Shown here piece by piece: positions 11,503-12,476 of a stretch of DNA of 64,000 nucleotides. Numbering within the stretch: the stretch's first letter is position 1; each line of letters opens with the position of its first letter. The notes below the pieces were generated by a model. The model was not told the origin of the DNA. It made no database searches and was given only the letters and a program-made list of their open reading frames with translations. The DNA is taken from the NCBI RefSeq assembly GCF_988243305.1, contig NZ_OZ547136.1; one strand, 5' to 3'. The translations under genes and the position numbers were made by a program.

Positions 11503-11811
11503 TTGAGCAGGAAAAAGAGTACCCCGGAAGTTGTGGAAGACATGGTTGCGCAGAAACTGGAGGCTGCTGGTTGCTGGCGCAGAGCTTCTGACCGCTGGCT
11601 TTTTGTTATGGGAAATGTTGAATGTACAGAAGCACAACGGGAGTGGTTGTTGTTGCGCCGGAATTATTGTCTGGCGCAGATATCGTCCCCGCCGCTACCT
11701 GAAAAGCTGGATATCAGCGAGGTGGCGAAAGCTGCAGATGCCACGCTGAGGCGAATGGGGATTGCCACTCCGTCCGGGGAGGTATTCAGAAAAGGTACAC
11801 CGGTCTGTTGA
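11503..11811 (+). CDS. PerC-family-like small transcriptional activator (tentative)
   Basis: 102-aa ORF with LEAAGCWRRASDRWLFVM...LLLRRNYCL, resembling the PerC/Pch signature (LE..G..RRA..RW ... RRN.CL). Confidence 0.4.
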   Translation: MSRKKSTPEVVEDMVAQKLEAAGCWRRASDRWLFVMGNVECTEAQREWLLLRRNYCLAQISSPPLPEKLDISEVAKAADATLRRMGIATPSGEVFRKGTPVC

Positions 11812-11831
11812 TATTCAGGTAACAGGTATTA

Positions 11832-12476
11832 ATGATGAAGCAAGGAATGGCAAACAGTATATCAATGACATGGCAACTTTTATGCGATGAACATGGTTTT
11901 ACCCGGGAGCACTACAATCAGCTGAAGAAGTTCAGCCCGGAAACATTACGTGAAATTATTGCTGAAATAGCCAGCTGTCATCCATCAACCAGTGTATTGC
12001 TCAGGAATAAGTGGCTGACACCGCCGGAGGATATTCTGGAGCAGATTACCCGTGAATACGAACGAAGAATACAAAACTGTCCACCGTTCAGGAGCGAGAA
12101 GGAAGCGGAATCCTGGTTAAATGAACTATCTTTTGCTGTGATTGCTCCGCTATACCGTGTTGCCCCCGAACAAACAGAACAGGTTGAGTCCTTTGTTCTG
12201 CAGCTTATTGCCGAGCAGGAGCGGGTTTGGGAGCTTATTTTAACCAATGATGGTTATTCATGGCATTGCGCACTTTATGATATATTATTTCATCTGGTTT
12301 TACGAAATATGGAAGACCAGCCTGAACATCAGAAACAGCGAATAACAAAAATATTTTATGAGCCCGATGCAAGACTGGTTGCAGAAGAGATTAAATTCCG
12401 GATTCAATCTCTGTATGATGATGAACAAAAGAGAGCTTTAAGTGAACTGGTAAATGATTTTACTTCAAAAGAATAA
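11832..12476 (+). CDS. hypothetical protein
   Basis: 214-aa ORF; no family recognised. Confidence 0.45.
   Translation: MMKQGMANSISMTWQLLCDEHGFTREHYNQLKKFSPETLREIIAEIASCHPSTSVLLRNKWLTPPEDILEQITREYERRIQNCPPFRSEKEAESWLNELSFAVIAPLYRVAPEQTEQVESFVLQLIAEQERVWELILTNDGYSWHCALYDILFHLVLRNMEDQPEHQKQRITKIFYEPDARLVAEEIKFRIQSLYDDEQKRALSELVNDFTSKE

Follow-up and report, generated by a model that had tools for sequence, protein, structure and literature searches.

A pchD-type gene and its 214-residue neighbour downstream of ibrAB in an aerobactin/Ag43 island

Positions 11503–12476 of a 64,000-nucleotide (nt) stretch of contig NZ_OZ547136.1 (NCBI RefSeq assembly GCF_988243305.1; the whole stretch is called the window here) hold two open reading frames (ORFs), one of 102 amino acids (aa) belonging to the PerC family and one of 214 aa, which follow ibrA and ibrB; all four genes are on the + strand. 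An earlier note, made from the letters of the window, had described the two ORFs as co-oriented behind ibrB with short spacers, and they are present exactly in that form (Table 1). The safest statement, and as regards identity a nearly certain one, is that this interval carries pchD and ECs1389, both already known as members of an island block with a wide distribution. RefSeq and published work contain the finding already, as pchD and probably as hyp3; what appears to be new here is that the 214-aa protein is homologous to the SpnT/DUF6880 N-terminal domain, together with a tetratricopeptide repeat (TPR)-like model of the PerC core and a coupled PerC/SpnT-N pair in another genus.

Identity and layout of the two genes

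The 102-aa protein matches the Pfam PerC profile (PF06069) over model positions 2–89 of 90, at E 7.6e-37 (125.9 bits, cutoff 22.6), and the PerC/Pch-like signature that the earlier note had read in it is thus borne out by hidden Markov model search. PHROG families labelled transcriptional activators match it as well, and RefSeq labels the gene "PerC family transcriptional regulator" (WP_000226519.1). Traits of the PerC family are also seen in its size and in its carriage on an island bounded by insertion sequences (IS) together with aerobactin and Ag43 genes. The segment that holds it is 99.8% identical in O157:H7 strains, where the PerC and 214-aa WP proteins are identical or near-identical and the genes run in the order POTRA/HecB-like, helicase, phosphoadenosine phosphosulfate (PAPS) reductase (ibrA-like), IbrB-like, PerC, 214-aa hypothetical, IS debris, GTPase and cah. 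In the published S-loop 72/OI-43,48 list ECs1382 is the HecB-like gene and ECs1388 is pchD, flanked by ECs1386/87 and ECs1389 (PMC1890555), and the gene order of the window agrees with ECs1382–ECs1389. Given this DNA identity, the synteny and the published gene list, the 102-aa ORF is, by sequence comparison, the ortholog of O157:H7 Sakai pchD (ECs1388; SpLE1/O-islands 43 and 48), a group-2 Pch gene. The likeness extends to the identical protein encoded downstream; the difference lies in the setting, as the O157:H7 pchD locus adjoins ter/ure, whereas the block in the window is in an aerobactin/Ag43 island and has a nonsense codon in ibrB.

Against the CFT073 allele the ratio of non-synonymous to synonymous substitution rates (dN/dS) of pchD is 0.17, which indicates purifying selection. 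Since, in addition, the alignment of the 214-aa family (12 sequences, down to 48% identity) has 42 invariant columns, including LLRNKWLT, we take both genes to be real. RefSeq, through the Prokaryotic Genome Annotation Pipeline (PGAP), places the start of pchD at the ATG at 11542, giving 89 aa. The residues MSRKK..PEVVED, which precede that ATG, are kept in alleles down to 60%–68% identity in an alignment of 17 PchD-type sequences, and in one sampled allele (locus L025) the gene begins at an ATG two codons 3' of the conserved TTG; for both reasons the 102-aa ORF with its TTG start is a better model than that of PGAP. A PerC homolog from Yokenella aligns from residue 10.

An AlphaFold2 (AF2) model of PchD has a TPR-like helical core, and no solved structure matched the PerC protein by sequence. 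Neither PchD nor the 214-aa protein has a match in PADLOC-DB 2.0 at E <= 0.1. Membership in the ANR (Aar-type) negative regulators, which like PchD are small helical proteins of pathogenic Escherichia coli, was considered and rejected: the match to NF033650 is weak (E 0.0095, residues 16–60), and its 15.8 bits are below the cutoff of 32.

The spacer between ibrB and pchD carries the motif GTATTATTTCAGTGAGTT(A/G)ATGTTTTG, with the TTG start at its end, and this motif is kept in CFT073, in ST38 and in the L025 allele. The spacer between pchD and the 214-aa gene is identical at 20/20 positions in the window and CFT073, where the adjoining coding sequence is 3.6%–5% different. A consensus scan gave no terminator-like hairpin in the two spacers. 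A search of 9000–13200 returned no Rfam family, and the region 3' of the 214-aa stop folds no better than shuffles (z 0.27).

Table 1. Coordinates of the two genes, their spacers and the neighbouring features in the window
Feature	Position	Strand	Basis
pchD-type PerC-family gene, 102 aa, TTG start	11503..11811	+	ORF list, PF06069, RefSeq, synteny, AF2 model
214-aa gene, ATG start	11832..12476	+	ORF list
ibrB–pchD spacer, 39 nt from ibrB stop to pchD TTG, AT-rich	11464..11502	+	Motif conservation
pchD-to-214 spacer, 20 nt, AGG 7–9 nt 5' of ATG	11812..11831	+	Comparison with CFT073
ibrA, PAPS-reductase-like ATP-pyrophosphatase domain + DUF3440	9563..10840	+	Pfam, RefSeq
ibrB, ParB-N/IbrB-like, interrupted by in-frame TAA (K153*)	10825..11463	+	Translation, phrog_2159
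Superfamily 1 (SF1) helicase, 893 aa, C-terminal DUF2726 (nuclease-like)	6426..9107	+	Pfam AAA_11, AAA_12, DUF2726
IS remnants and IS3-family transposase, downstream bound of block	12792..14064	.	RefSeq pseudogenes; Pfam rve, HTH_21

Kinship of the 214-aa protein with SpnT/DUF6880

RefSeq gives the 214-aa gene as a "hypothetical protein" (WP_001333354.1), with an identical protein in O157:H7, and no significant match was found in Pfam, NCBIfam, PHROGs or PADLOC. A word-indexed search returned 41 relatives, with identity down to 48%; wherever a source was named, it was Escherichia. An exhaustive profile search found further relatives of ~195–201 aa, and the same profile matched the N-terminal ~150 residues of nine proteins of ~460–470 aa (E 4e-10 to 7e-4). 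DUF6880 (PF21810) is present in 7/7 of those longer proteins that were scanned against Pfam. By hhalign, residues 21–207 of the 214-aa protein align with positions 3–189 of the DUF6880 profile (probability 99.2%, E 1.2e-19), and a single-sequence phmmer comparison with an ICEKp258.2-type protein gave E 7.7e-11. The profile search and the profile–profile match show the 214-aa protein to be a stand-alone homolog of the SpnT/DUF6880 N-terminal domain. It is not a full member of that family: the DUF6880 architecture is one of ~460 aa with a model of 472 positions, of which the 214-aa protein covers the N-terminal ~40% only, and the PF21810 Pfam model itself gave no match to it at E <= 1.

The name SpnT comes here from NCBI annotations, "SpnT protein" being the NCBI name for the cluster of P0064, one of the ~460-aa DUF6880 relatives. 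The P0064 locus consists of an integrase, SpnT, a type III methyltransferase and a helicase/endonuclease, the arrangement of ICEKp258.2 as described in PMC10763509. SpnT/DUF6880 proteins are found on TnTIR in Serratia and on EARL/ICEKp258.2-type islands, and the 214-aa protein resembles them in being enterobacterial island cargo, too. Islands of the EARL/ROD21-like kind repeatedly carry SpnT homologs and encode H-NS homologs as well (PMC6035254), and the passage of PMC11064533 that summarises Wei et al. states that SpnT overexpression in E. coli leads to elongated cells and nucleoids. No relatives of the 214-aa family were found in 2.9 million viral contigs or in GTDB species-representative genomes, and literature searches for DUF6880 or DUF3440 gave nothing useful. 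Another ORF of the window that also encodes 214 aa (33795–34439, +) was considered as a paralog and is unrelated (best BLASTP E 13); it is without a Pfam match and lies in a CP4-like region (DUF987 ... cbeA/cbtA).

Compared with CFT073, the changes in the 214-aa protein cluster at its ends, within ~10 residues of the N terminus and ~45 of the C terminus, and residues 14–170 are almost unchanged. We take the termini to be weakly constrained, since dN/dS for the whole gene is 0.78 against that allele. The gene is a mosaic between alleles (11832–12476 against 6353–6997 of the CFT073 locus, L010), with most of its 24 non-synonymous changes falling in the final ~45 residues, a pattern that suggests a variable C-terminal tail or recombination between alleles.

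Transcription and linkage to ibrAB

We favour, at somewhat better than even confidence, a reading in which PchD is a small TPR-like Pch-type regulator with targets outside the enterocyte effacement locus (LEE), the 214-aa protein is its helical-repeat partner, and their genes close an island operon at its distal end. The expression data come from Shiga toxin-producing E. coli (STEC): the consecutive genes ibrB (DA88_14145), perC (DA88_14150) and hyp3 (DA88_14155) were up 2.4–7.6-fold by RNA-seq in two STEC strains attached to T84 and Caco-2 cells (Table 4 of PMC7649339). The hyp3 gene (ECO26_1340) belongs to the tellurite adherence island, is present in 5475 of 25,527 genomes and was proposed as a candidate virulence gene (PMC7649339). 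It is probably the 214-aa gene, which it resembles in coming directly after ibrB and perC; the identification is based on consecutive locus tags and island location. Co-induction of the three genes fits co-transcription. The locus also has the traits of an operon, with a common strand, spacers of 39 and 20 nt and no intervening terminator-like site, and pchD and the 214-aa gene are probably the distal genes of a transcript initiated at ibrA.

Several observations weigh against this reading. The equation of hyp3 with the 214-aa gene is drawn from locus tags and island position and not from sequence, and co-induction falls short of proof of a single, junction-spanning transcript. About half of the ibrAB-positive genomes lack both genes and carry an ibrAB copy of ~88% identity in which the homology ends exactly at the ibrB stop. 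PerC follows ibrB without the 214-aa gene in three sampled loci (L023, L025, L029), and as each of the two occurs without the other the PerC–214 pairing is facultative. The dN/dS of the 214-aa gene against CFT073, given above, counts on the same side. Finally, pchD has no known target or phenotype. It is one of two PerC homologs of enterohaemorrhagic E. coli (EHEC) whose major function has been called elusive (PMC6265319); its overexpression left curli-dependent dye binding unchanged in that paper's own assays, and it is said there, after Iyoda & Watanabe 2004 and Porter 2005, to have little effect on LEE/ler. On this record pchD cannot count as a typical activator of the known PerC/Pch targets, and the earlier note's description of it as a virulence-type activator is not supported in that form.

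The distribution of the genes speaks to their linkage with ibrAB. The 3.3-kb region 9500–12800 has matches (to ibrAB) in 2165/5426 complete E. coli genomes, and the segment with pchD and the 214-aa gene in 1112/5426. PchD-type alleles of 87% (ST38), 69% (P0132) and 68% (P0137) identity all lie directly 3' of ibrA–ibrB, and IbrA and IbrB are 89%–95% identical across the copies with diverged PerC, in which the ibrB–perC spacer motif is kept. The flanks of these copies differ: L023 has Cas3/CRISPR I-E downstream, L025–L028, on replicons of 104–192 kb, have IS elements nearby together with PapB and AraC-type genes, and L029–L031 have a GerE/LuxR-type gene downstream. Among metagenome loci with a 214-aa gene of 73% identity or more, 22/22 have PerC directly upstream and ibrB before it. 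Co-occurrence with ibrAB is nonetheless not obligatory. Stand-alone ibrAB sites (L017–L019) are found on an IncFIB plasmid and, in IHE3034 and ECONIH1, close to cobU, and no PerC remnant was found downstream of the stand-alone ibrAB copies. The attachment of PerC to IbrAB that the earlier note had put forward is conserved, in that three diverged alleles follow ibrB amid differing flanks; it is not a fixed association, as ibrAB occurs alone and a PerC pair occurs without ibrAB.

That pair is in a metagenome-assembled genome (MAG) of Yokenella regensburgei, where the order is PRiA4_ORF3, a 201-aa homolog of the 214-aa protein (43% identity) and PerC (57% identity), reversed relative to the pair in the window. 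The stop of the 201-aa gene overlaps the PerC start (ATGA), ibrAB is lacking and a Hhe-like helicase lies upstream; no E. coli genome or plasmid has this arrangement. PRiA4_ORF3 (PF07929) is directly upstream of a SpnT-N-like gene both in this MAG (L002, 5374–5982) and in an unrelated short contig (L006, 2–508), and it is possibly a third member of the module.

It is against this background that a different account of the pair has to be weighed, namely that pchD and the 214-aa gene, driven by a promoter of their own, are island cargo with no functional tie to IbrAB, adjacent to it through block inheritance in a mosaic island. The Yokenella pair without ibrAB and the abrupt end of the stand-alone ibrAB homology would fit this, as would the decay of ibrA and ibrB in loci that retain the pair (below); the conserved AT-rich spacer before pchD contains TATATT/TATTAT, and the consensus scan gave a promoter-like match at 11808–11836. 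The same scan, however, found no promoter-like site in the ibrB–pchD spacer, the three PerC alleles, diverged to 68% identity, all follow ibrB with a conserved spacer in spite of differing flanks, and the fold changes of ibrB, perC and hyp3 were similar in four RNA-seq comparisons (PMC7649339). We therefore think independent cargo unlikely and keep to the island operon.

Members of the 214 family without PerC occur at several kinds of site: copies of 52%–55% identity directly 3' of vasL of a type VI secretion system (T6SS), a copy in Serratia entomophila adjoining DUF2913 and an integrase, copies in Enterobacter-type loci after a Crp-family gene, and one in a P4/AlpA-type island. Depending on the strain, the locus just downstream of T6SS vasL/tssA holds the 52%–55% variant alone (L012/L013/L015/L055/L056), full-length DUF6880/SpnT (L021/L022) or a truncated ibrAB–PerC–214 block (L044/L050/L053). 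Relatives appear to replace one another there, as at a hot spot of recombination or integration.

Island surroundings and a proposed role

IbrA has the Pfam domains PAPS_reduct (E 3e-17) and DUF3440 (E 7.8e-33), together with weak DndC/BrxP-like matches; RefSeq labels it "phosphoadenosine phosphosulfate reductase", and PGAP places its start at 9608. IbrB, whose gene overlaps the ibrA stop by 16 nt, matches phrog_2159 "ParB-like" at E 2.5e-55. In the window ibrB is not intact: codon 153 is an in-frame TAA (11281–11283) where the otherwise identical reference NZ_CP048934 has AAA, and the K153* base was found in none of the other complete E. coli genomes that carry the segment (0/795). K153* may be a pseudogenisation particular to this strain or an error in sequencing, and its polarity might affect pchD and the 214-aa gene. 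In CFT073 ibrB is frameshifted, and in several metagenome loci ibrA or ibrB is split, truncated or frameshifted while the PerC and 214-aa genes are intact. PerC is split in one sampled locus only (L052), and L051 and H61 have an interrupted 214-aa gene.

These lesions raise the question of whether the block in this strain is a decaying remnant with no current function. The nonsense codon is unique to the window and could by polarity lower downstream expression, IS debris follows directly downstream, and the dN/dS of the 214-aa gene points the same way. Against this, both ORFs are intact and identical or near-identical to widely conserved alleles, pchD has the low dN/dS given above, and a single point mutation is too recent to bear on the genes downstream. 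We consider decay highly improbable and retain the view of a working regulator and partner.

Upstream of ibrAB lies the 893-aa helicase of Table 1, whose best PADLOC matches are to MkoA (E 1e-43) and MkoC (E 2.3e-40), with an architecture unlike that of Mokosh; its O157:H7 counterpart is annotated in two pieces. It may be an uncharacterised defence gene. Defence-type genes are found at other copies, too. An OLD-family AAA_15/TOPRIM nuclease is beside the CFT073 (L010, 1700–3148) and L044 (1696–3558) copies, the Cas3/CRISPR I-E of L023 follows at 4834–7491, and a reverse transcriptase precedes the L029 copy (1–618). The Hhe-like DUF4011 helicase precedes the Yokenella pair (L002, 1–5115), and a NERD-UvrD helicase is near the T6SS-linked copies of the 214 family. 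This suggests that the ibrAB(–PerC) block lives in defence-island hot spots. On the other side of the block, after the IS debris, is an aerobactin cluster (14557–25149) with a shiF-like major facilitator superfamily gene on the minus strand, iucA (IucA_IucC + FhuF), downstream genes and a TonB-dependent receptor (22870–25149). The aerobactin segment is an insertion relative to strain 190693, because the same junction leads there straight to the GTPase and Ag43 genes.

The block might itself be a defence or DNA-modification island, in which IbrA and IbrB modify or sense DNA and PerC and the SpnT-N-like protein are its regulators or accessory factors rather than virulence regulators. Defence-type neighbours recur around copies of the block, full-length SpnT adjoins a type III restriction–modification system in ICEKp258.2, and IbrA, with its PAPS-reductase fold, gives weak matches to DndC and BrxP, while IbrB, with its ParB-N-like domain, weakly resembles DndB. 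The adjacency is weak evidence, because defence genes are common in any island. The score of IbrA is far below the DndC cutoff (TIGR03183: 14 bits against 290) and DndA, DndD and DndE partners are absent, so that the likeness is an analogy only. PADLOC has no match for pchD or the 214-aa protein and only weak ones for IbrA and IbrB (BrxP, DndC and a type II methyltransferase model), and the absence of 214-family relatives from the viral contigs counts against this account as well. IbrAB reportedly activates Eib, an observation credited to Sandt et al. in 2002. The only other experimental result is the induction on epithelial contact (PMC7649339), and both speak against a defence role, which we rate as quite unlikely.

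The regulatory part of the favoured reading takes its cue from better-known relatives. PchD shares PF06069, small size and carriage on mobile elements with PerC of enteropathogenic E. coli (EPEC) and with EHEC PchA/B/C (group 1). Group-1 Pch proteins relieve silencing by H-NS/StpA/Hha and lower H-NS binding at LEE1 (PMC4764244), and pchD differs from them in the small LEE/ler effect and lack of a curli effect noted above (PMC6265319). In the mechanism we propose, pchD and the 214-aa gene would share with ibrAB a transcript that begins at a promoter upstream of ibrA, and would be induced on contact with host cells. PchD would then relieve H-NS-type silencing of horizontally acquired promoters, as reported for other Pch proteins, at non-LEE targets. 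Its small TPR-like core in the AF2 model and its basic N-terminal tail suggest that it may act through protein contacts and not through a classical DNA-binding domain.

The 214-aa helical-repeat protein may be a protein-binding partner or modulator of PchD. We infer this from the ATGA-coupled Yokenella pair, from the 22/22 metagenome loci and from the SpnT overexpression phenotype, as given in the summary of it in PMC11064533. The pair might function without IbrAB, given K153* in the window, the ibrB frameshift in CFT073 and the broken ibrA or ibrB genes beside an intact pair elsewhere, and the data can be explained without making PerC a mediator of IbrAB's regulatory role.

A broader proposal is that PchD-type PerC and SpnT-N-like proteins constitute a two-protein module, a TPR-like protein with an alpha-solenoid partner, sometimes joined to a DndBC-like IbrAB; mobile islands would employ the module to reshape silencing complexes of the nucleoid or of H-NS and thereby turn on horizontally acquired genes at host contact. 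We regard it as a long shot; if true, it would give the orphan regulators pchD, ECs1389 and SpnT their first mechanism. The finding leaves the current understanding of PerC/Pch and of IbrAB unchanged, and its additions are modest. The 214-aa neighbour had previously been named as a candidate virulence gene on expression data alone, and with these additions an orphan pair present in about one-fifth of E. coli genomes becomes experimentally testable.
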